From a virus: a stretch of DNA of 64,000 nucleotides. The notes beneath the pieces are model-generated. The model was not told the DNA's origin. It saw only the letters and a program-made list of their open reading frames with translations, and ran no database searches. Where the stretch lies: IMG/VR virus record IMGVR_UViG_3300045988_159773; one strand, 5' to 3'. Below, piece after piece: positions 30,551 to 62,761 of this stretch (positions are counted from its first letter, which is position 1; every line of letters begins with the position of its first letter). A program made the translations under genes and the position numbers.

Positions 30551-30845
30551 ATAAAATCCTCCCGTATACAGTCTCAGCGGTGAACGTGCACTTGTACACC
30601 TTGTTCACCATTGACGAGCTAAACGTCGTTATGCCCGTCACCCCGTTCGTACCTAAAATCACCTTTTGGACATTCAAATCCGTCTCATCTTTCGTAGCTC
30701 CAAGCGGCAAACCGAACAGCACATTCGATTTATACTCCCCCTTTATAATAGAGAGTCTTGCCGTCAGATTTGCTTGTATGGCGTAGACATCCTCAACCAA
30801 CCTGTCTGGATAAATATCGCCGTCTTTCATTTCAAATGATTTCAC
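30543..30845 (-). CDS. Small baseplate-associated protein (XkdS/DUF2634-like size and context)
   Basis: 100 aa with a GTG start. The call rests on context only. Confidence 0.4.
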   Translation of the reverse strand: MKSFEMKDGDIYPDRLVEDVYAIQANLTARLSIIKGEYKSNVLFGLPLGATKDETDLNVQKVILGTNGVTGITTFSSSMVNKVYKCTFTAETVYGRILYE

Positions 30846-30856
30846 GCGCCGCCCCC

Positions 30857-32233
30857 TTACTCGTCAGAGAACTTGACCGTCGCAGTCCCGCCGATTGCTT
30901 TCTGATAAATCAGTATCTTTGTTCCAATGGAATAAGACGGTGTGCTGGATACGAAGTCGAACAGACCCGCATCATACTGCGACAGCACGCCCTGAATTGC
31001 ATTGACCGTATCCACAAGTGTAATTGGCTCGCCTGGTTGCAAGCCCGCCACATATTCCTGCAAAGCGAACGACACCCGCTCACGCACAGTGTTCCTCAAC
31101 GTTCCGTCCGTGTTCGTTGGCGGCGTATACAGAGTGATTGCAAACGTCACCGTATTGTCCACCAACCGCGTGAACGGAATTTGAGCGATGATGGTCTCGA
31201 CAGGAATCTCAACCATAAAATTGCCTGTCTTGTACGTCACCCCGTCAATCACCACCGTGCCATTGACCACCTGCGGCGAGGTCGAAACCGCGCAACCGAG
31301 CGACTTATAGTTGAGGATGGTCTGCGCGATGGTTACGTCGCTTGCGTCAGTAGAAACCGTCGCGTCCGTTCCGTCGTAGTTCGGCGCAGTAGAGCCTCCT
31401 CCTACAATGCACCAGACAGAATGAGGGTCGATGCCGTACGGATTCTCGTCGGACACGCTTGCCGAGTTGGTAAAGTTCTCAATGATGCGAACGTAGTCCG
31501 TCAACTTCAAAAGATTCGAACGCAAGCCATCCACCGTAGCCGCCGCATTGGAATACACCGCCGCGTCATACCGTGCACGCATCTGCGCGTCCGTTTCCGT
31601 TTCGAGTACTGCAGGGGTCGCATTGACCTTGTTGATGAACTCGAAGTGGTTTATAAACATCGGGTCGGACGGCGAAACCGCCTTCATCGGTGTCATTGCT
31701 GGGTAGTTGTTTGCATACAACAGGTCAGCGTCGTAACCCGCCAGCGGCATCAATCCGAACTCGCAAGTGCCTTGAAAGTTCTCCTCGGTGTCAAACGACC
31801 CGTCTGGCGAGAACTTGTATTCCTGAATCATTAGCTGCGTGGTGTTTACCCATACACGCCCCTTATTGTCCTCAACAAAGATAGAGTTGCGGGATGCCAA
31901 AAACGGCTTGATGACTGTCGAGTCAACCGTGCAGGTCATTTGAACTCTCTGGTTGCGAATCGACTTACGGACGATACCGCGCTGCCCCGCTACAAAGTCC
32001 AAAAAGTTCCCAGAGAGCTCCTTGGTCGAGAAAAGCTCCGAGAACGCCTGAGTAGAGCCGTTGACAGTGGAAAGCCCATCCGCCAGCATCTGCAAAAATA
32101 CGTTGAATGGCGTACCCTCATCAAGAGAGATGTCATTGCCATACGCCGCGCGAGCAAAGATTGCAAGCTGCTCATATATTTCCTGGCGAGTTGCAATCTT
32201 CAAGCCAGTATCTGTCAATTTGATAAAATCCAC
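30857..32233 (-). CDS. Baseplate J-like protein
   Basis: N-terminal pattern ...RQEIYEQLAIFARAAYGNDISLDEGTPFNVFLQMLADGL...GNFLDFVAGQRGIVRK is typical of the gpJ/gp6 family. GTG start follows AGGAGG. Confidence 0.65.
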   Translation of the reverse strand: MDFIKLTDTGLKIATRQEIYEQLAIFARAAYGNDISLDEGTPFNVFLQMLADGLSTVNGSTQAFSELFSTKELSGNFLDFVAGQRGIVRKSIRNQRVQMTCTVDSTVIKPFLASRNSIFVEDNKGRVWVNTTQLMIQEYKFSPDGSFDTEENFQGTCEFGLMPLAGYDADLLYANNYPAMTPMKAVSPSDPMFINHFEFINKVNATPAVLETETDAQMRARYDAAVYSNAAATVDGLRSNLLKLTDYVRIIENFTNSASVSDENPYGIDPHSVWCIVGGGSTAPNYDGTDATVSTDASDVTIAQTILNYKSLGCAVSTSPQVVNGTVVIDGVTYKTGNFMVEIPVETIIAQIPFTRLVDNTVTFAITLYTPPTNTDGTLRNTVRERVSFALQEYVAGLQPGEPITLVDTVNAIQGVLSQYDAGLFDFVSSTPSYSIGTKILIYQKAIGGTATVKFSDE

Positions 32234-39245: not shown

Positions 39246-41351
39246 CTAAAGCCAAAAATTACTCTTTCCTTTCACCATCGTGACAACACCGCGAACGCAC
39301 CGAGCCACGCGCTCAGTCGTAATATCGTAGTCCGTCGGTATGTTCTTAAACTCCTTGTTTGGGGAACGCCAGCGCATAATATCCAGAACGGTAGTCGTGC
39401 ATTCTTGCAGTACCTGAATCTTGTTCTTTGCGAACCCGCCCTTGATGATGCTTGTCGACACCAAAATGTTATCGTCTTCAAACTCGTACATACCGAACAC
39501 GAATTGAGTAAGGTTGATGACTTGCTGATTGGTCGAGCAGTCATAGATAATCGTGCCTGGCTCAATCTGTTTTAAGAAGTCCGACAGCTCCGCCACAGAG
39601 GGGAACTTGTGCTCCTCGGTTACGGTGAAAATGTCCTTCGTCTGGTCGTGGCGAATTTTCAACGCGTAGTACAATCCGCCGCTCTCCGTCACGCCGAAGT
39701 AGTGATTCCAATACTCGGTATCGTGTGGCTTCTGGATAATGTTTTGGCTTGTGAACACGCCAGAATAAATGAACATATTCTTCTGCATGAAATGCGTGAT
39801 GACCAGCTGGGTGAACGCGTCGACATCGTCGTCATTCGCCACAGTAGGGAACGACATCAAGTGCCTACACAGCTCCGACACCCGCTCAGACTCAACGAAC
39901 TTTACACGACCCTGCCGCAGGTACACGACCGCCAACTCAAGCCTCGCCATCTTCGATCTAGTTCCTGGCTGGAACGGAATCAAACCTGCGACCGTACCAG
40001 CAAGCATCTGCAACAGCGGCGAACCATTCGCCTTGTCTTCCACGACTTGGAATATACTCGGGTCGATGGCTTCAAGGTTGATTAAGAATTCTTGCTCTTT
40101 GCTTATCGACATCCGCTCCATCATCGCGTCGGTGATGTACAGCGTCGAGAATTCGTCCGACCAGCCCTCAACGTAACCGTGTTGGTCGCTCGTTTCCAAA
40201 TCCTTGACAGGACAGTCGTGCGATGCGTAATGCGTAATCTTGTTGACAGCGGCAAAGTCTTCTTGCGTGATAGTTGCCGCATTGATGTCTTCAAGCGATA
40301 CAACGTTCAAGCCAGAAAGAGCCACGTTCTGTTGGAACTGACACTCAAAGTCAATTTCGCCCAACTTCATGCGCTCAACCGAGTAGTCTCCGAAACGCTT
40401 GCCAGCCAGCGGATCACCCTTCTTGCGAAACCAGATTTTGCCCGACAGCGGGAAAATGAATGCCTCGTCCTCAGTGGCGAGAGCCTTCAAAACTGTGTTC
40501 GAATAAAGTCTGGACAGCTCTGGGTCGGACGTAATCATATCCGATACGTCCCCTTTGCAAATCCTCTGCATGATATGGCAGGTGACTCCCGTCTTCGGGT
40601 CGTTCAAACGCGTAGACTGCGTGTACCTGATGTAATCCTTTGCAGACTGCAACACCTTACCGTCCGCACGCGCGTCCTGCACGTTGACCAAGTCATCGTT
40701 GAGGATAAAGTTAGAACCACGACCAGTAAACGACTTCATAGATGTCGAATAAGACTTGCCGAGATTTTGCATCTCCACCAGCGTCGAGCTGTCGTAACGC
40801 AAACGATACTCCTCTTCTGGGAACATCATTCTGAATTTCTCGCTATTCAGCAAAAGCCTCTTCTTGTCAATGAACTCACGCGACAGGTCTTGCGAGTGCG
40901 ACACCGAAGTGGTCATAACAGGTTGGTGCATCATGCACCACACAGGTCCGCATACGTTAACGATTAAGGACTTGCCAGCACGAGGGTGAATGTTGATGTT
41001 GTGGTTTCGTACGTGCTCGCCGCGAAACATCTTATCACGCACGTCACACTTAGGCATAATGCCCGTCTTCTTGAAGTACTTTATCTTTGCCTTCTCGTAT
41101 TCAGCGTCCGAGATGAATTTTGAGGTCAGTGATTCGGGCAGTTTGTTGACCGACATAAATACAAAGCATTCGCAAAGAAACTCAATATACGTCTCGTCCA
41201 CAAACGGAAACGGCTCAAACGTGTCCCAAAAATATTTGACAAACTCGTACAAGTCCGACATCACCAGCTCACGCATAGCGCGAATTGGCTTATACGTAAT
41301 CACTCCCAAATCAGGCAATTCTTTAACTTGTCGTTGTGATGAAACTCCCAT
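39246..41351 (-). CDS. terL: Terminase large subunit with a C-terminal extension of about 190 aa
   Basis: IHPRAGKS (Walker A), FILNDD (Walker B), and nuclease acidic motifs YASHDCP and NDDDVDAF. No SD; the ATG lies 6 nt after TATACT. Confidence 0.85.
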   Translation of the reverse strand: MGVSSQRQVKELPDLGVITYKPIRAMRELVMSDLYEFVKYFWDTFEPFPFVDETYIEFLCECFVFMSVNKLPESLTSKFISDAEYEKAKIKYFKKTGIMPKCDVRDKMFRGEHVRNHNINIHPRAGKSLIVNVCGPVWCMMHQPVMTTSVSHSQDLSREFIDKKRLLLNSEKFRMMFPEEEYRLRYDSSTLVEMQNLGKSYSTSMKSFTGRGSNFILNDDLVNVQDARADGKVLQSAKDYIRYTQSTRLNDPKTGVTCHIMQRICKGDVSDMITSDPELSRLYSNTVLKALATEDEAFIFPLSGKIWFRKKGDPLAGKRFGDYSVERMKLGEIDFECQFQQNVALSGLNVVSLEDINAATITQEDFAAVNKITHYASHDCPVKDLETSDQHGYVEGWSDEFSTLYITDAMMERMSISKEQEFLINLEAIDPSIFQVVEDKANGSPLLQMLAGTVAGLIPFQPGTRSKMARLELAVVYLRQGRVKFVESERVSELCRHLMSFPTVANDDDVDAFTQLVITHFMQKNMFIYSGVFTSQNIIQKPHDTEYWNHYFGVTESGGLYYALKIRHDQTKDIFTVTEEHKFPSVAELSDFLKQIEPGTIIYDCSTNQQVINLTQFVFGMYEFEDDNILVSTSIIKGGFAKNKIQVLQECTTTVLDIMRWRSPNKEFKNIPTDYDITTERVARCVRGVVTMVKGKSNFWL

Positions 41352-41703: not shown

Positions 41704-42149
41704 TTCACCGAGCAGACCTCAATCACCCGCATCGCGAACTCCTTGTCCTGGATTGCCGTGATTTGAAGTCCCATCGCCCGACAGATTGCCTCCGCCACCA
41801 TCATCACCTCTTCGTCAGAGAGATACGGGTCGAGCGTCGAAATGATTTTATAGTCCTGTCCATCGTGGTCGATGTAGTCAATGCACAATCTCGGGTACAC
41901 GATTGCCACCGATTTGACAGGTAGAGTGTCTCCGATTATGTAACAGTCAAGACAGTCCCCGTCACCATCCAACGTTGACGGAATAAAGCCGTAGTTTGCA
42001 AAGAACGGAATGTGATGAATATTTGTGACAGGGAAAAACTGCGGAGCGTTGTTCTTTACCTCACGCCGCACTTGTGTTCCCTTGGTCACCTCGACAACCG
42101 CCCGACAGGTGACCCCATTAAATTCATTTGGAAGTGTCAAATAATTCAT
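41700..42149 (-). CDS. ppa: Family I inorganic pyrophosphatase
   Basis: NYGFIPSTLDGDGDCLDCYIIGD...IDYIDHDGQDYKIIS follows the PPase pattern YGFIPQT..DGDPLDVLV...D.GE.D.KI. Confidence 0.75.
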   Translation of the reverse strand: MNYLTLPNEFNGVTCRAVVEVTKGTQVRREVKNNAPQFFPVTNIHHIPFFANYGFIPSTLDGDGDCLDCYIIGDTLPVKSVAIVYPRLCIDYIDHDGQDYKIISTLDPYLSDEEVMMVAEAICRAMGLQITAIQDKEFAMRVIEVCSVK

Positions 42150-42161
42150 CGTGCACCCACA

Positions 42162-43775
42162 TTAATCAATGGCCTTTGCAACGCCAGACGAAACCTGATG
42201 CCAGCCGTTCTTGGAAAGCTCGCTCTTCAATGCCTCTGGGGTAGTTTCGTTCATCGCGTATTTGTTGTACCCGAACATCCCCTCGCGCATAGAAAACTTC
42301 TTTCCGATGTAGAAATAAAGGTTCGGGTCAATGTTCGACTGCATCACGTAAACTATGGTGTCCCTGCCTGGCTCTTTGGTGGCTACGATACCATCCTTTA
42401 TCGCCGCACGAACTTTTGCCATCGCCTCAGCCGCGCTGTGAGCGCGTGTGTCGAATTTCTTGTCTCCAACGGACACACGAAACGACCTCAGCGCACCCGC
42501 TTTGTCGGCAAAGCAGTCAGAGAATTTGTCTTTGAAATTGTCAGCATAGTCTTCGGACATATCACAGTCCGTACTCTCGAACTTGAACTCGCCCGCTTCG
42601 CTGTCAAACACCACAGAGTCGAGCAGTTTAATCTTGCCCTGATTGATGTTCGTAACGACCTCATCATACGACAGCCGACCGCAGACATTACCATCCGCGC
42701 CGAACTGAACGATGAACTCTCCGCTGTTGATGTCGGGGATAATGCTCTCCACTACGCAAGGCGTTCCGAAGTAACGGATACGCTGACCTACCCGCAGTTT
42801 GTGAGAATCGCCTAGAATCTCTACTCCGTCGCGAATAGAGTCGTTGACCTTACGGATGAACAGCAGTTTGCCGTCCGATCCATTCAAATACGAGTAGAGC
42901 AATTTCGTGCCAGAGAGCAACCGAACGATAACGTCCTTGCCGCGTGCTTCCACGCTCGCCCCTGGGTAGTACGAGCGCAACTCTCCGATGTTGTTGAAAG
43001 AGCTTTTCGCCTCAAAATCTTCAAACTCAGCATCAGAGATAAACATACGTACATTCCTAACTCCGTGCTTCGATGCAAAATCCTTAGCCTCCGCCAAAGA
43101 ATATCCACCGTATACAGTGAGAACGTTAACGATATGTTGCTGCGTCATAGCACCGCTTGGAATACCCTTCAAATGCTCCTTGAGAACCTTGATTGTCTTA
43201 TCAAAGTCCACTTTATCCTTGACGTCAATAGAGTCTCGGATGCGTGCAACACCCGCGCGACCCGCTTCGCAAAGTGCGATATGATTGCCTCGAATATTTT
43301 TCATAATATATTGCCCGTTGACCTCCTCAATATCTGCGGTATAGCCGACAGACAAATCCCGCTTCTTCTTCGTCAGAATCTCGTCAATGACCACAGGGTC
43401 GGTGGCTACGATGTCCGCCATAAGGCATCCATCGAACTCACCCACGCCGCGCCGAATGTTGGTCATAAAACCCTTTTGCAGATAGCTGACCGTCTCGGGA
43501 GTAACGTTCTCTTCGGGGTGGTCGTCTACCAGCGGCTTGTAGTTCATCGACTTCATAGAGATTGGGTCGAACACTTCCTCGGGCGAGCGGTACACCTTCA
43601 CAATCTTATCAGGCGAGCCGTCTTCGATGAGTTCACTCTCACGATAGTCATAATAACCTGTACGCGCAAGAACAACGTTCTCGCATATCAGCTGACCGTT
43701 GTTGTCGCGCCACAGATTGTTGGAAATCTGCTCGCCGTAGATAGTATCTTTTATGCTGTCAGAAAATCTCCTCAT
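42162..43775 (-). CDS. DUF2213-like (prohead scaffold/protease-type) N-terminal domain fused to several small modules
   Basis: The N-terminus (LARTGYYDYRESEL...KVYRSPEEVFDP...PLVDDHPE...DLSVGYTADIE...IRGNHIALCEAGRAG) matches my recollection of DUF2213. Residues about 249-313 are paralogous to the C-terminus of 51507..52376. ATG at 43775 follows GAGGTGG. Confidence 0.55.
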   Translation of the reverse strand: MRRFSDSIKDTIYGEQISNNLWRDNNGQLICENVVLARTGYYDYRESELIEDGSPDKIVKVYRSPEEVFDPISMKSMNYKPLVDDHPEENVTPETVSYLQKGFMTNIRRGVGEFDGCLMADIVATDPVVIDEILTKKKRDLSVGYTADIEEVNGQYIMKNIRGNHIALCEAGRAGVARIRDSIDVKDKVDFDKTIKVLKEHLKGIPSGAMTQQHIVNVLTVYGGYSLAEAKDFASKHGVRNVRMFISDAEFEDFEAKSSFNNIGELRSYYPGASVEARGKDVIVRLLSGTKLLYSYLNGSDGKLLFIRKVNDSIRDGVEILGDSHKLRVGQRIRYFGTPCVVESIIPDINSGEFIVQFGADGNVCGRLSYDEVVTNINQGKIKLLDSVVFDSEAGEFKFESTDCDMSEDYADNFKDKFSDCFADKAGALRSFRVSVGDKKFDTRAHSAAEAMAKVRAAIKDGIVATKEPGRDTIVYVMQSNIDPNLYFYIGKKFSMREGMFGYNKYAMNETTPEALKSELSKNGWHQVSSGVAKAID

Positions 43776-43787
43776 ACCCACCTCTAC

Positions 43788-44405
43788 TTATGCCTGCGTG
43801 TCCACAACAGAGATAGTAACCGTGGTGTATTTTCCATCACGCCCAAGCAAAATTGTCCTCGTCCCGTTCTCAAGCTGCAACCACAGCACGAACGAGCCAG
43901 CCGCAAGACCAACAGTGGTGGCTTCTGTCACGTCCTGTTCCGTCAGTTCCTTGCCTCCGAACGAAGTACCGATGATGGTTGATTCACCAGTAGCAATCGC
44001 GACAGCGAGCCACGCGCGAGGTCCGAGAGTAGCCTCGATCGCATCGTCCGATACGTATTTTACGAGTTTGGAAAAATCCACCTCAATTCTGTAATTGGAA
44101 TCGTCAACCTTCGACATCGTCGCTGCTGCCTGATTGATAACCGCACTGTCGTGAATCTCCGCTTCCGCAGGTATTCCGCTCGCTGGAACGACCGACAGTG
44201 CAAGAGCCGTAAACACGTCAGCTGGTGCAGAGTCGACCTCAACATTGTAAGATCCGCCGAAACGTTCATAAAATAAGGCTTCCTGTCCTTTAACCAGAAC
44301 AGTCATAAAGTCCTTATCCTTAACTCCCAAATCGACGTAAGAACTCTTCATGCGGGTGAGAGTGTCACCCTCGCTACGGTCCATTTTTACGATATATTCT
44401 TTCAT
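43788..44405 (-). CDS. Hypothetical virion-module protein
   Basis: 205 aa with RBS AAGGAAGG. Confidence 0.5.
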   Translation of the reverse strand: MKEYIVKMDRSEGDTLTRMKSSYVDLGVKDKDFMTVLVKGQEALFYERFGGSYNVEVDSAPADVFTALALSVVPASGIPAEAEIHDSAVINQAAATMSKVDDSNYRIEVDFSKLVKYVSDDAIEATLGPRAWLAVAIATGESTIIGTSFGGKELTEQDVTEATTVGLAAGSFVLWLQLENGTRTILLGRDGKYTTVTISVVDTQA

Positions 44406-58566: not shown

Positions 58567-60432
58567 CTACGAGAACTGTTTACCAAACTCCGCGATAAAT
58601 TGTTCGCGCGTATACGTAATTATTGCCCCATCGACAATCTTGGTCTCGTACTTTCCTTTGCCACCCTTTATCCAGTGGCTTTGAATGTTCAGCCCGCGAG
58701 CCACTTTGATGGGAAATTGAATGTCGTCAAGCGATGCCACTGGAATCGGAACGCACCGACAATTTCCCACAAAAATCGCTGGACAAAGTTGATAAATTCC
58801 AGTATAATGTTCAATGTTATGAACAAACAAAGAATCTATTCTTCTGACTTTTTTCACAAGGCGCACAAAATGCACACCATCGATAGAATCCCTATTTGCA
58901 AGGTCGCTTCCATCCTTGGATGCAAGAGCGACACGCTCAAGAATGGATTTATTCGTCTCGGACTCCCATTCACACTCAACATCCCCCCTGCGCAAAGCAA
59001 ACTCCCCTCGAATAAAATTATTGACAAATTTAATAAAGGTCAGTCTGTTCTCAGCCTTTCCAAAGAATTCAACGTCGACCGTGGAGTTATTGTGAGACTG
59101 CTCAACAACAACGGAATCAAAGAGCGTACTGGTAGCCAAGCCAATATTATCAGATTCCAAAACACACCGCAAGACCAACTCAAACAGCTCACCAAATCTG
59201 CCAATGAGACTCTGCGCGGCAGAAAGTACACCGCTGACGAACTCCACGCCCGCGCCCTTAAAAGAGAGGTCAACGGAACTATGCACGCGCACATCGGATT
59301 CTTTGAAAACGAAGTCCGACAGGAATTTGAAAAGTTCGGATATAAAGTCACTCCGCAAAAAGCTATCTACGGATACAATGTCGACCTCTTTATCAACGAT
59401 TCCGTCATTGTGGAAGTCGAACCCGTTGCTCAATTCCTTTTCAAGATGCCCAGCACACATAAAGGCAAAAAACTTAAAGAGCTGCTCAAAGGAAATTACA
59501 AGGTCATCTACATTGTTCCCATGAGCAAATCCGCGACTCCCTATAACATAGTCCCCCTCTTCCAACTCCTTGACCGAACGGAAACCGACTGGAGTCACGA
59601 ATGGGTGATTAGGTGTAACAGTGACGGTAATGCCATCATCGAAAGTTAAATCAAAGACTTCCCCCTCATACTCTCTGCGGTAAACCTTATTTATTCCGTA
59701 GAGAGTTTTTATTTCTGTTTCACCACTAAAACAATTAATGAACCGACCGCAGTGGTTCTGGTAGTTGTCAATCGTTGGCGGGTCATTCCAAAAGAACAGC
59801 ACCCCGTCCAGAATAGAGTGGGAACTACGCACCCGCGAGTCCTCGCTTGTCGACCAGATGTAAGCGTTCAGTCCGATTTTCTGCATACGTAATTGGGTAA
59901 GCGTCGAGGTGATTTTTGCAGACTCTGTGCGGATGATTACCCGCGCTCGCTTGCCCAGTCGCTCCGTCAGTTCTTTGGCAAACTCCGTACCGCGAAACGC
60001 CGTCCCTCTCTTATACGCCCTTTCCATATCGAGCGCGATGTCCTGCGGCAGGTCTTTGATTAAGGACACGTTATGCCTGAACGCCTCCATGAACCTGTCG
60101 TAGTCCTCTTTGTTGTTCAGCAGATTTTTCGCCCGCAAATTCAAGTACTTGTTCCGTGGATTCTGAATGAACGCGCCGACAATCAACTCGAACTCCTTGC
60201 CCGACTTTGCAAAAGTCGAGTTCGACAGGTTGAGGATGGATTGCTTCAACGGCTTTATGGTAAACTCGTGCAAAATCATATCAACCTCTTCGTATGATTT
60301 TGCCTTGCGAATGCGCGACGTAAGCTGTGCCTCGACTTGCGCTTTGAACGCCGCCGTCAGCAGATTCTCCTGTGTCCAATTCGATTTCAGTTTGCGATTT
60401 ATCTTCCTACGGAGTCTTTTCGTCAATTTCAT
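58567..60432 (-). CDS. MuF/SPP1-gp7-like minor head protein interrupted by a 324-aa intein
   Basis: MuF motifs ARVIIRTESAKI, SRVRSSHSILDG and FFWNDPP. The conserved H..CRC motif is split as NHCGRFIN | intein | CRCVPIPV. Confidence 0.8.
   Translation of the reverse strand: MKLTKRLRRKINRKLKSNWTQENLLTAAFKAQVEAQLTSRIRKAKSYEEVDMILHEFTIKPLKQSILNLSNSTFAKSGKEFELIVGAFIQNPRNKYLNLRAKNLLNNKEDYDRFMEAFRHNVSLIKDLPQDIALDMERAYKRGTAFRGTEFAKELTERLGKRARVIIRTESAKITSTLTQLRMQKIGLNAYIWSTSEDSRVRSSHSILDGVLFFWNDPPTIDNYQNHCGRFINCFSGETEIKTLYGINKVYRREYEGEVFDLTFDDGITVTVTPNHPFVTPVGFRSVKELEEGDYVIGSRGFAHGNNVDDLVISFEQLFKFFAFMCAGHLEKELSNGFDFHNDGIVDKEVDIVSVDSFLRSDFISELFKFLSDFVFKESDVRVHSSVDLSFKGAGVEFVSGVLSAAQSLIGRFGELFELVLRCVLESDNIGLATSTLFDSVVVEQSHNNSTVDVEFFGKAENRLTFIKFVNNFIRGEFALRRGDVECEWESETNKSILERVALASKDGSDLANRDSIDGVHFVRLVKKVRRIDSLFVHNIEHYTGIYQLCPAIFVGNCRCVPIPVASLDDIQFPIKVARGLNIQSHWIKGGKGKYETKIVDGAIITYTREQFIAEFGKQFS
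58780..58808 (+). promoter_or_regulatory. Plus-strand sigma-70-type promoter TGGACA-17-TATAAT in front of the antisense nuclease gene
   Basis: Hexamers and the 17-nt spacer were counted directly. The in-frame ATG at 58819 lies 11 nt after the -10 element, so the leader would be very short. Confidence 0.55.
58819..59649 (+). CDS. HTH plus PD-(D/E)xK-like nuclease (putative homing endonuclease), encoded antisense inside the intein
   Basis: MNKQRIYSS...IPICKVASILGCKSDTLKNGFIRLGL...SVLSLSKEFNVDRGVIVRLLNNNGI (two HTH-like segments) ...ENEVRQEFEKFGYKV...YNVDLFINDSVIVEVEP. It uses no TTA, CTA or TCA codons and has its own promoter. It is the only protein-like plus-strand ORF in the window. Confidence 0.6.
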   Translation: MNKQRIYSSDFFHKAHKMHTIDRIPICKVASILGCKSDTLKNGFIRLGLPFTLNIPPAQSKLPSNKIIDKFNKGQSVLSLSKEFNVDRGVIVRLLNNNGIKERTGSQANIIRFQNTPQDQLKQLTKSANETLRGRKYTADELHARALKREVNGTMHAHIGFFENEVRQEFEKFGYKVTPQKAIYGYNVDLFINDSVIVEVEPVAQFLFKMPSTHKGKKLKELLKGNYKVIYIVPMSKSATPYNIVPLFQLLDRTETDWSHEWVIRCNSDGNAIIES

Positions 60433-61382
60433 TTCAGCACCTCAATTACAAAACGCTCCGTCTCATCTCTACGATTTACCCAAGCGTCCTCTGTTATAAA
60501 ATAAAGGTGCACCCCCTTTTCCGCGCACCGAGCCAACTTAATTGAGTTAAACTCATCTGAGGTCATCCCCTTCTTTTTAAGCAACACCTCATCAGAATGC
60601 CAGTAAGTCCCATTATACTCAAAAGCAACAAACTTATCTGGAATCAAAATATCCAACTCAAGCGGCGGTATAAACGTACGTGTGTTTACATCAATATCGC
60701 AACCACACACAGACCGAACAAAATCCTCAAGCTCCCTCTGCTGCGCCTGATAATTCCTGACCCAATCAACCCCCAAACGAGCCAAAGCACGACGTGCATG
60801 ACCACTTCCACTAAAGCCAAAATAATCAATCAAACTATCGAAATCAACGTGCTTCCTTTCATCCACAAAACGCGCCTCGATAAACTCCCTTGTCAAGTCA
60901 TCCACATTCCGCATATGAATATGCTTGTTATGCTCGACCCCATACTTATCAAGCATAGTTTTACGCTTCTTCATAAGTGCCTCCTCACTGCCACCCCCGA
61001 ACGGAACACCATACCGCGCGACACATGTATCCTGAGCCTTCTTTTGAACAGCCACATTGCTAAATGGACTATTTCCACCAAACCGCTCCCTGTTTCTTTG
61101 TAAGGTTTTCTCCTTATTAGAACCCCACAACGCCACAGTAGAGCCGTACTTATCCATGCACGTTTGTTTCCTCTTCTCAATTGCTTTCTCAGTGTTTAGG
61201 GGGTTGCTATTCATGCACTGCAATTTTGCCGCACACGAACGACTACACGTGCCTTTCCAAATACTCTTCTCTTTTCCGCAAATAGGACAAGTGTCCATCG
61301 CATGAACGCACGATGGACACAAAGTAACTCTCATATTCCTAACATCAAACTCAGAGCCGCAATGCACACAAATCTTCTTCAT
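60429..61382 (-). CDS. Free-standing Zn-ribbon plus PD-(D/E)xK-like endonuclease (putative homing endonuclease)
   Basis: CVHCGS..CPSC..CPICG, repeated ..KYG.. units, and the C-terminal LELDILIPDKFVAFEYNGTYWHSD nuclease-like core. Start MKKICVHC at 61382 lies 6 nt after GTTATT. Confidence 0.55.
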   Translation of the reverse strand: MKKICVHCGSEFDVRNMRVTLCPSCVHAMDTCPICGKEKSIWKGTCSRSCAAKLQCMNSNPLNTEKAIEKRKQTCMDKYGSTVALWGSNKEKTLQRNRERFGGNSPFSNVAVQKKAQDTCVARYGVPFGGGSEEALMKKRKTMLDKYGVEHNKHIHMRNVDDLTREFIEARFVDERKHVDFDSLIDYFGFSGSGHARRALARLGVDWVRNYQAQQRELEDFVRSVCGCDIDVNTRTFIPPLELDILIPDKFVAFEYNGTYWHSDEVLLKKKGMTSDEFNSIKLARCAEKGVHLYFITEDAWVNRRDETERFVIEVLK

Positions 61383-61417
61383 AGTTAAAATAACAATCAG
61401 AGATGTATGTACCGTCA

Positions 61418-62761
61418 TTATTCAGAGTTTCGCTCGAACGCTTCTTGCTCCATTACCACATACCTATCCACAATTTCAGAGTTCGAAAAAGTAGCCTTCG
61501 CATGAGGATTAAAACCCGTAACAAAAAGACCATCCAACGAGCGCACACGACTGAACGCAACGTATACTTGCCCATTCATAAACATCCTTGAGCAATCAAT
61601 AAATGCCGCGTCAACCGACGTGCCCTGTGATTTATGTACGGTTATAGCATAAGCCAACCGCAACGGCAACTGGTTGATGGTTGCCAGCGTGACGTCAATT
61701 CCGCGCTCGTTTTTCTCGGTCGGATTAAAGATGGTCTCTTCTTCGACCGTGTACACGATGCCGCTGTCAAACCGCACGATGGGATTGCCGTAGGTATCGG
61801 AAAGCCCGAACCCCTCATCCTCCGTTCCAATGCCAGAGAACCCGATGACCTCACCCAGAGAGCCGTTGAACAGATACCCTCCGTCAACGTCCTTGTTCTT
61901 ACACATCATCACCCGCGCACCGACACGCAACACCAACTCCTCTGGAATTAGCGAGTCTTTCCAATACGCTCGAATAAGGTTCTCGTCTCCGTAGGAATCC
62001 GCGCGGAACTTTCGCTCCGTGGCGGGGTCAAGTTTGTTGAACTTGAACACATTGTACTGGTCAACCTCTGCGTTGGTCGAGAACAGCCGAATTGCCGTGT
62101 CATCGGCGGGAACCTCGCGCGACTTGATACGTGCAATGTCCTGCGCGTTCAACTTGTTGTACCTCAACCGAGTAAGGATACGGTAGAACTCGTCGTCCCC
62201 AGACTGACGGAAATTCGATGTCATAAGCATCGTCTTGATGTTTGCCTCTTTCCAACACTTGCAGTCCCAGCAGATTTTATCGTTGGCTGACGTGCCCTTA
62301 AACACAGGCGGCAACTGCAAAAAGTCACCGAACAGCGCGACCTGAACCCCGCCGAACGGAAGTGAGGAATCCCTCACCATCTTACAAATCTCGCTCACAC
62401 ACTCGAGCAGAGCGTCCGACACCATCGAAATCTCGTCGATTATGAGTAACTTTGCCGAACGGACAGCCCAACCCCGCTTACCAGCATCAACCTTATTCGC
62501 ACTCTCCTTTGCGTTCGGCGCACTGGGATTGATGAGGAACTGCGAGTGCAACGTGCGCCCGCCGACATTGTTCGCCGCGATGCCCGTGCTTGCCGTCGTC
62601 AATACTCGACCCTTGTAGTTCGCTCGTATGAAGTCAATAAGGAAAGACTTGCCAGCACCCGCGCGTGCGGTTACAAACAAGTTCTCCCCAGCATTGAGGG
62701 CGTCCCAGCACATCTTTTGGTCAACGCTTAATATTGAAGTGTCTACAATCCTTTCGTCCAT
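61418..62761 (-). CDS. Pif1/RecD/Dda-like superfamily 1 DNA helicase
   Basis: TARAGAGKSF (Walker A), ASTGIAANNVGGRTLHS, LLIIDEISMV (Walker B) and the C-terminal AITVHKSQGTSVD. Confidence 0.8.
   Translation of the reverse strand: MDERIVDTSILSVDQKMCWDALNAGENLFVTARAGAGKSFLIDFIRANYKGRVLTTASTGIAANNVGGRTLHSQFLINPSAPNAKESANKVDAGKRGWAVRSAKLLIIDEISMVSDALLECVSEICKMVRDSSLPFGGVQVALFGDFLQLPPVFKGTSANDKICWDCKCWKEANIKTMLMTSNFRQSGDDEFYRILTRLRYNKLNAQDIARIKSREVPADDTAIRLFSTNAEVDQYNVFKFNKLDPATERKFRADSYGDENLIRAYWKDSLIPEELVLRVGARVMMCKNKDVDGGYLFNGSLGEVIGFSGIGTEDEGFGLSDTYGNPIVRFDSGIVYTVEEETIFNPTEKNERGIDVTLATINQLPLRLAYAITVHKSQGTSVDAAFIDCSRMFMNGQVYVAFSRVRSLDGLFVTGFNPHAKATFSNSEIVDRYVVMEQEAFERNSE

Follow-up and report, generated by a model that had tools for sequence, protein, structure and literature searches.

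Inteins carrying an 'anti-sense VSR-like HEN' in the MuF-like minor capsid genes of actinobacteriophages were described by Gosselin, Arsenault and Gogarten (bioRxiv 10.1101/2025.01.02.630785, October 2025 version). In that preprint Vivi2 gp14, Affeca gp15, Fosterous gp12 and Angelicage gp15 are labelled 'VSR -1 ORF', antisense architectures are called rare, and VSR-like inteins are suggested as possibly one of the 'off-tracks' of split-intein evolution. We analyzed a locus of this kind in a 64,000-nt stretch of viral DNA (IMG/VR record IMGVR_UViG_3300045988_159773), which is referred to below, over its full length, as the window. A minus-strand gene for a MuF head protein is interrupted there by an intein, and the interior of the intein lies opposite a plus-strand open reading frame (ORF) that is probably the gene for its homing endonuclease. 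The original prediction, made from the sequence of the window, had held this arrangement to be undescribed. That claim falls, as the arrangement is already in the preprint, including the same Gordonia phages.

The window locus shares with these inteins the MuF host family, the ..IN/CRC.. insertion site (a slash marks the splice junction throughout), an unsplit class 1 intein, a nuclease ORF in the antisense -1 register, a match of the nuclease to the solved structure 3R3P and an unstructured in-frame interior. By our reading, the consensus of the cluster 60 insertion site in the preprint translates to ..E-V-I-N/C-R-C... When the window nuclease was compared by tblastn with Fosterous gp12, Affeca gp15 and Vivi2 gp14, the matches (E 1e-14 to 2e-13) lay opposite the strand of the annotated coding sequence (CDS). 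The window copy differs in that it resides in an uncultured, non-actinobacterial phage, has a candidate promoter and a presumably near-leaderless start without a Shine-Dalgarno sequence, and has an intein ending in Gly-Asn.

Three further groups of elements are close to it. Antisense LAGLIDADG inteins are credited by the same preprint to Gorbalenya 1998 and Gogarten 2002, and Synechocystis dnaX and a Chloroflexus SpoVR-like gene are, according to it, antisense or out-of-frame cases. The dnaX case was re-analyzed with frame-specific selection in a 2026 preprint (bioRxiv 10.64898/2026.09.14.751524). In those inteins, as here, the intein is read through a non-functional stretch while the nuclease occupies another frame, and selection is frame-specific; the nuclease family, the host genes and the organisms are different. 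The second group is the I-Bth0305I or EDxHD family (Taylor 2011, PMC3239194; Dassa 2009, PMC2677866). The window nuclease is homologous to it in sequence and shares its Vsr-like catalytic fold; conserved counterparts of the first Glu and the metal-binding Asp (D196) are present, both nucleases are modular in their N-terminal DNA-binding region, and both are associated with self-splicing elements of phages. Known EDxHD members reside in group I introns, are free-standing or lie between split-intein halves, whereas here the gene is antisense within a contiguous intein and its DNA-binding modules are of the resolvase helix-turn-helix (HTH) type. On sequence, H213 and D222 of I-Bth0305I have no conserved equivalents in the present family, which places it outside the EDxHD family in the strict sense. 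In the fractured genes (Dassa 2009, PMC2677866) a related nuclease lineage is likewise inserted where the endonuclease of an intein usually sits, again in phage genes. The host gene of those elements is split into two ORFs joined by trans-splicing, whereas in the window the host ORF is continuous and stop-free. Neither Dassa 2009 (PMC2677866) nor Taylor 2011 (PMC3239194) mentions the antisense layout.

Since the arrangement is already in the 2025 and 2026 preprints, the window contributes no new principle, but it does add breadth and detail. Judged from sequence comparison, what is new here is that the family is large and extends far beyond actinophages, that it occupied the antisense niche in 14 of 14 cases, and that the anatomy of the overlap can be given in detail.

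The MuF intein and the gene on the opposite strand

Both frames probably code, and together they would form one mobile unit, a class 1 MuF intein with a homing endonuclease gene on its opposite strand (Table 1). We infer that the plus-strand ORF is expressed, that the precursor splices and that the nuclease cleaves DNA. The MuF ORF matched Phage_Mu_F in Pfam (E 8e-11) and, among the PHROGs, the 'head protein' family phrog_15127 (E 6e-67). Its insert spans CFSGETEI to ..AIFVGN and is followed by CRCVPIPV, which gives an exact intein site, C234 ... N557/C558, at the conserved ..FIN/CRC.. of MuF. When the insert was deleted, the Phage_Mu_F score increased from 43.1 to 55.8 bits and the coverage grew from model positions 2-99 to 1-110 of 112. 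MuF genes with an empty CRC site were found in many phages, and these intein-free genes aligned in one piece over the junction (residue 233/234). The predicted split of MuF exactly at its CRC site by a 324-residue insert is thus confirmed both by the boundaries and by the continuity of the exteins after removal. The best extein matches of the window MuF were in Agathobaculum and Faecalibacterium phages; blastn of the MuF gene against phage genomes gave no matches.

The Hint blocks A, B and F/G that had been read in the insert are present. Among seven relatives aligned, C234 and T273-P-N-H276 were invariant in all seven, as were N557 and C558. Pfam Intein_splicing matched the MuF ORF with E 7e-6 and 26.4 bits, below the 35.8-bit cut-off, and relatives bear a precomputed PF14890 annotation. 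A profile of the intein family matched about 20 solved intein or Hint structures over residues 248-312 (E 3e-4 to 0.5), including 2lwy, 2jmz, Pho RadA, DnaB and PI-MtuI at E 3e-4 to 0.07. Over blocks F/G more distant relatives (P0153-P0156) read ..VYNLQ...CQHN/C. The window clade has changed block F from VYNLQ to VHNIE and has a Gly-Asn intein end, not the canonical His-Asn; the change in block F removed the antisense Shine-Dalgarno sequence of the nuclease gene.

The plus-strand protein belongs to a large family. An exhaustive HMMER search returned 1026 protein clusters with a cut-off of E<=1e-3, of which 216 passed E<=1e-10; most of the homologs are 280-300 aa long. By tblastn the protein was found in 81 phage genomes at about 30% identity, the carriers including Salmonella Jersey-like, Klebsiella, Gordonia, Vibrio and Edwardsiella phages, Aaphi23/S1249 and a Helicobacter prophage. 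A word-indexed protein search with the plus ORF gave no matches, and a locus search with the single plus protein returned near-identical IMG/VR contigs only. A profile of seven members matched 3r3p, the solved catalytic domain of I-Bth0305I, with E 6.8e-7, and also resolvase-type HTH domains. Pfam HTH_7, HTH_38 or HTH_23 was present in 4-5 of the seven members and REase_MTES_1575 in three. In a Foldseek search of the PDB with the AlphaFold2 (AF2) model of the protein, 3r3p was again the top match (probability 1.0, template modelling score 0.57-0.58 over 91-95 columns). Profile, Pfam, AF2 and Foldseek together support the two HTH segments and the PD-(D/E)xK-like core that had been proposed for this ORF. 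E163 and D189 were invariant in 41 of 41 sequences, as is the acidic triad E163/D189/E199, and the conserved nuclease set in the family is E163, Q180, D189, E199 and R/K218. E163 aligns with the Glu at 3r3p chain position 9 (E170 in our numbering) and D189 with position 196.

A longer form of the nuclease, 439 aa with about four HTH modules, was seen in two loci (L016 1788..3107 and L017 422..1741), in which the intein frame is open over all 439 codons; the L016 variant retains a GGHWHS motif, which is EDxHD-like. P0023 was rejected as a family member, being a free-standing HTH-repeat protein without a nuclease domain and with 19 antisense stops.

Table 1. Features of the MuF intein locus and the adjoining gene (window positions; blank cells, nothing reported)
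Feature	Position	Strand	Basis or remark
MuF (head morphogenesis) precursor ORF: N-extein, intein and C-extein	58567..60432	-	621 aa
N-extein, residues 1-233, last residues ..NHCGRFIN	59734..60432	-	
Class 1 intein, 324 codons, C234..N557	58762..59733	-	
Intein block A, CFSGETEI, with Cys1 nucleophile	59710..59733	-	Read from sequence; C234 invariant in alignment
Intein block B, TVTPNHPF (T-x-x-H motif)	59599..59622	-	T273, P274, N275, H276, P277 and F278 invariant
Intein interior, 'shadow' linker, residues 301-520, antisense translation of nuclease gene	58873..59532	-	No recognizable fold
Intein blocks F + G, SLFVHNIEHYTGIYQLCPAIFVGN, last residue Asn557	58762..58833	-	N539 and N557 invariant
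Cys+1 (C558), first C-extein residue, within CRC motif	58759..58761	-	C558, R559 and C560 invariant
C-extein, residues 558-621, and stop codon	58567..58761	-	
Candidate sigma-70-like promoter, TGGACA-17-TATAAT	58780..58808	+	Within block F/G codons; ends 10 nt before ATG 58819
Probable homing endonuclease gene, 276 aa	58819..59649	+	Homology, AF2 model, Foldseek, omega
First HTH module, residues ~9-47	58843..58959	+	Model helices 9-20, 26-33 and 37-47; HTH profile matches
Second HTH module, resolvase type, residues ~57-97	58987..59109	+	Gamma-delta resolvase HTH, profile positions 57-98
Vsr-like / PD-(D/E)xK-type nuclease domain, residues ~160-266	59296..59616	+	Invariant E163, Q180, D189 and E199
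Free-standing homing endonuclease	60429..61418	-	phrog_3339 E 3e-33; Pfam DUF7487; motif ELDILIP..FEYNGTYWHSDE

Coding frame of the intein interior

The plus strand is open over 58600..59649, with an alternative in-frame ATG at 58807 ahead of that at 58819. As predicted, the ORF is in the same triplet phase as MuF and runs codon for codon opposite intein residues 262-538; its greater AT-richness is also seen (GC content 0.45 versus 0.50 for the window).

In order to determine which frame codes, we compared the window with L013, a relative whose MuF is 71% identical. The differences at MuF codon positions 1/2/3 numbered 78/55/153 in the exteins (60/43/117 in the N-extein and 18/12/36 in the C-extein). 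In the N-extein they were concentrated at position 3, and the ratio of nonsynonymous to synonymous change (omega) was 0.13 in the MuF frame. The corresponding numbers for the interior of the intein were 67/17/41, with most differences at position 1. The chi-square test of this flip gave P = 1.7e-6. Over the exteins omega was 0.04-0.13 in the MuF frame and about 1.0 in the plus frame; in the interior it was 0.55 in the MuF frame versus 0.23 in the plus frame. Across phages, the plus frame was more conserved than the shadow frame in 21 of 21 pairs (mean identity 31% versus 20%), measured over the same codon columns, which came from an alignment built on the plus frame. The substitution pattern thus indicates that purifying selection in the intein interior acts on the plus frame and not on that of the intein. 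A per-frame comparison had been suggested as a check on the original prediction, and its outcome agrees with it.

In the intein frame the interior translates to a sequence with many F, V, S, L, E and D residues. In the model of the MuF precursor a predicted local distance difference test score (pLDDT) of 20-34 was obtained over residues 298-521, compared with a mean of 88.2 for the plus-strand protein; since the MuF alignment held seven sequences and that of the plus protein 41, this contrast is indicative, not rigorous. The best-conserved segment of the minus-frame interior, FHNDGIVDKEVDI, is the exact antisense of the catalytic core of the nuclease, YNVDLFINDSVIVE.

Both ends of the nuclease gene are built into splicing motifs. 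The start lies within block F, where ATG 58819 is opposite the codon for His538 of FVHNIE. Most other lineages have a GGAG-type Shine-Dalgarno sequence 8-13 nt upstream of the nuclease start, and it is the antisense of the N-L-Q codons in block F. The promoter-like site that had been noticed upstream of the plus-strand ATG is present in the window, where it agrees with the consensus at 11 of 12 positions, and both strands of the 64 kb hold only one other match of this quality; the site is kept as TGGACT-17-TATAAT in L013 and in a second relative, L014. This site suggests that the nuclease mRNA of the window clade is near-leaderless. At the other end the nuclease tail overlaps block B, with the T-P-N-H codons lying opposite the conserved WVIRC of the nuclease. 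A motif for T-P-N-H as read on the opposite strand, the shadow [WRG][VM][VI][WRG][CSRG], was found 72-88 residues past the nuclease core in 74 of 150 homologs. Because the length of the tail varies among lineages, it is probably read-through to the first stop and not a needed part of the enzyme.

Homologous loci and probable mobility

The plus ORF contains no TTA, CTA or TCA codons, and its Leu codons are CTT (6), CTC (14) and CTG (3), in agreement with the earlier reading. Through the absence of these three codons from the nuclease gene the intein frame stays open. We examined 14 homologous loci that bear the nuclease. In all 14 the nuclease is antisense inside an intein of MuF or of a related minor capsid gene, and in all 14 the number of antisense stops in the intein frame is zero. 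Seven of the loci (L001-L007) are Aaphi23, Gordonia Fosterous, Edwardsiella MSW-3, Salmonella sidste, Klebsiella P12620-1, a Helicobacter prophage and Klebsiella RCIP0054. In each of these an intact ORF for the nuclease homolog lies opposite a single annotated MuF CDS, always in phase 0. The seven further loci are metagenomic and have the same layout; one carries the 439-aa variant with four HTH modules and one is in a Phage_min_cap2 protein.

The probability that no antisense stop would arise by chance was computed from the codon usage of each phage. It was 4e-6 for Aaphi23, 2.7e-6 for the Helicobacter prophage (in which TTA and CTA make up 54% of the Leu codons), 2.5e-6 and 9e-5 for the two Klebsiella phages, 1e-3 for the Salmonella phage, 3e-3 for the Edwardsiella phage and 0.23 for the GC-rich Gordonia phage. 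The claim that codon choice in the nuclease gene keeps the intein frame open is thus supported in the relatives, with P down to about 1e-6 where the host is AT-rich.

The Phage_min_cap2 case (L018 2001..4778, contig logan:ERR8169289_15990) has the antisense nuclease-in-intein within a 925-aa minor capsid protein (PF06152), at the site ..GLCGAN/CYHY... This suggests that the unit of antisense nuclease and intein has spread to a related head-protein gene.

Between the window and L014 the flanking genes are about 88-93% identical, whereas the intein interior is 98-99% identical, tapering to 95-97% in the C-extein. Synonymous divergence was 0.028 in the plus-frame interior, compared with 0.34 at N-extein sites. 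This pattern of identity and divergence fits a recent transfer of the intein with co-conversion.

Homology, fold, the flip in substitutions and the 14 loci together support the core of the original prediction, an opposite-strand nuclease with an intein translated through a stop-free mirror-image linker. On this basis, translation of MuF would pass through a meaningless 'shadow' linker of about 220 residues, and the two Hint halves would fold around the linker and splice out the intein to yield a MuF of 297 aa. The nuclease would be produced from its own TGGACA-17-TATAAT promoter on a near-leaderless mRNA, whereas in most relatives its translation would instead rely on the GGAG ribosome-binding site opposite block F N-L-Q. 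In a co-infected cell the nuclease may then cleave intein-free MuF alleles near the CRC codons, and recombinational repair would copy the intein and the nuclease gene as a single unit.

Alternative explanations and significance

Several observations weigh against one mobile unit in which both frames code, beginning with the unequal depth of the alignments behind the two models. In the window by itself a stop-free antisense frame is only mildly unusual (P about 0.026), because TTA, CTA and TCA account for 1.2% of the codons of the genome; 2 of 40 reference genes also lack them. With these codons so scarce, long codon-aligned shadow ORFs arise by chance here. On its plus strand the window has seven further ORFs that reach 200 aa or more, most of which overlap minus-strand ORFs of at least 200 aa, while two lie between such ORFs. 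Plus ORFs of 200-330 aa antisense to minus-strand genes include 30836..31834, 42015..42815, 43134..43982 and 40230..40967. The open antisense frame in this window is by itself weak evidence, and the part of the codon-choice claim that concerns the window alone is weakened accordingly. The nuclease ORF had been called the only convincing plus-strand gene; none of the other long plus-strand ORFs had a PHROG match. In addition, dual-coding constraint rather than recent transfer could partly explain the higher identity of the intein. The remaining contrary points concern the nuclease residues, its ribosome-binding site and the end of the intein, and each favors a particular alternative.

The alternative that survives best, although we regard it as unlikely, is that the layout is real but the nuclease is inactive or unexpressed in this lineage, so that the intein is a vertically inherited passenger that needs only to splice. 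In its favor, the window nuclease deviates at two near-invariant positions, G162 to F (34 of 41 sequences have G there) and A197 to I (38 of 41 have A), and a Shine-Dalgarno sequence is missing before both ATGs, unlike at 11-12 of 12 other loci. Some groups of VSR-like inteins are also apparently vertically inherited (bioRxiv 10.1101/2025.01.02.630785). Against it, the plus-frame omega is 0.23 relative to L013, and the catalytic E163, Q180, D189 and E199 are intact in the window nuclease. The window, L013 and L014 all have an unbroken plus ORF, the promoter-like site is kept in both relatives, and the intein is much less diverged than the exteins.

It is improbable that the plus-strand protein is real but serves another role, such as that of a DNA-binding regulator or a nuclease against competing phages. 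The two or more HTH modules would suit such a role, and so would the lack of conserved equivalents of H213 (the general base) and D222 of I-Bth0305I. The columns aligned with these residues are variable, and after E199 the family has no conserved His or Asp, although the alignment in that loop is uncertain; the chemistry of the family may therefore differ. Every nuclease-bearing member examined is, however, located inside an intein at the same MuF site, the acidic triad is invariant, and the intein is younger than the exteins, all of which argues for a homing enzyme.

We give still less credence to the possibility that insertion of the nuclease gene killed MuF, or that MuF is made as two pieces, with an open minus frame that is incidental and no splicing. 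Related Vsr-like nucleases are indeed known from 'fractured' genes, where they lie between the halves of split inteins (Dassa 2009, PMC2677866), and in the window, P0151 and P0152 the penultimate intein residue is Gly (..FVGN/C) instead of the usual His. The penultimate His of block G is common in active inteins but is not universal. An open intein frame in 14 of 14 nuclease-bearing loci, the conservation of all splicing residues and the strong constraint on the exteins are difficult to reconcile with a MuF that no longer splices.

The weakest alternative, that the plus ORF is a chance antisense shadow and the true product a novel in-frame domain in the intein interior, could draw on the frequency of long shadow ORFs in this genome and on some conservation of the minus-frame interior, for example FHND, but it is already contradicted by the similarity that the plus protein shows to HTH families and to a homing endonuclease of solved structure, by its confident fold, which the minus interior lacks, by a substitution pattern that favors the plus frame and by the identity of the conserved minus segment as the antisense of the catalytic core.

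A gene for a free-standing homing endonuclease (Table 1) lies between a PIF1-like helicase gene (61418..62761) and MuF, and its stop shares 4 nt with the start of MuF. It is absent from L013 and L014, in which MuF directly follows the helicase. The 3′ end of the helicase gene beside it is only 64-67% identical, compared with about 84-95% over the rest of that gene. The free-standing gene appears to be a second, independent mobile insertion. A search of the PDB by sequence gave no match for it. The plus-ORF core had been said to resemble this neighbor, but the resemblance is undetectable by BLASTP (E = 2), and the gene was rejected as a paralogue of the intein nuclease.

Gene callers take only the long MuF ORF, and consequently the nuclease gene is unannotated in all seven public phage records (L001-L007). 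The MuF product in these records, whose groups include Salmonella Jersey-like and Klebsiella phages, is described without an intein. The MuF proteins given there are about 300 residues longer than the predicted mature protein.

Returning to intein and nuclease as one mobile unit, the element is, on this reading, a clear natural example of opposite strands that each encode a functional protein, in one codon register, for about 830 bp; of the two partners, the intein needs only an open frame. It supports the route of intein evolution in which a 'free-standing nuclease invades an intein', and it offers a simple system for testing how far a Hint domain can accommodate arbitrary sequence at the endonuclease insertion point. 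The evidence is evenly balanced on the further idea that this is a single ancient and highly successful dual-coding unit, not a recurring rare accident, with a nuclease family that exists essentially only antisense to inteins of MuF or related minor capsid genes. This idea draws on at least 216 clusters (50% identity, E<=1e-10). The start and ribosome-binding site of the nuclease gene would have been built from block F codons and its tail from blocks B and A, and the unit would have spread over phages of Proteobacteria, Actinobacteria, Campylobacterota and uncultured gut-type hosts. If true, few conserved families of long antiparallel overlapping genes in viruses of prokaryotes would be larger.

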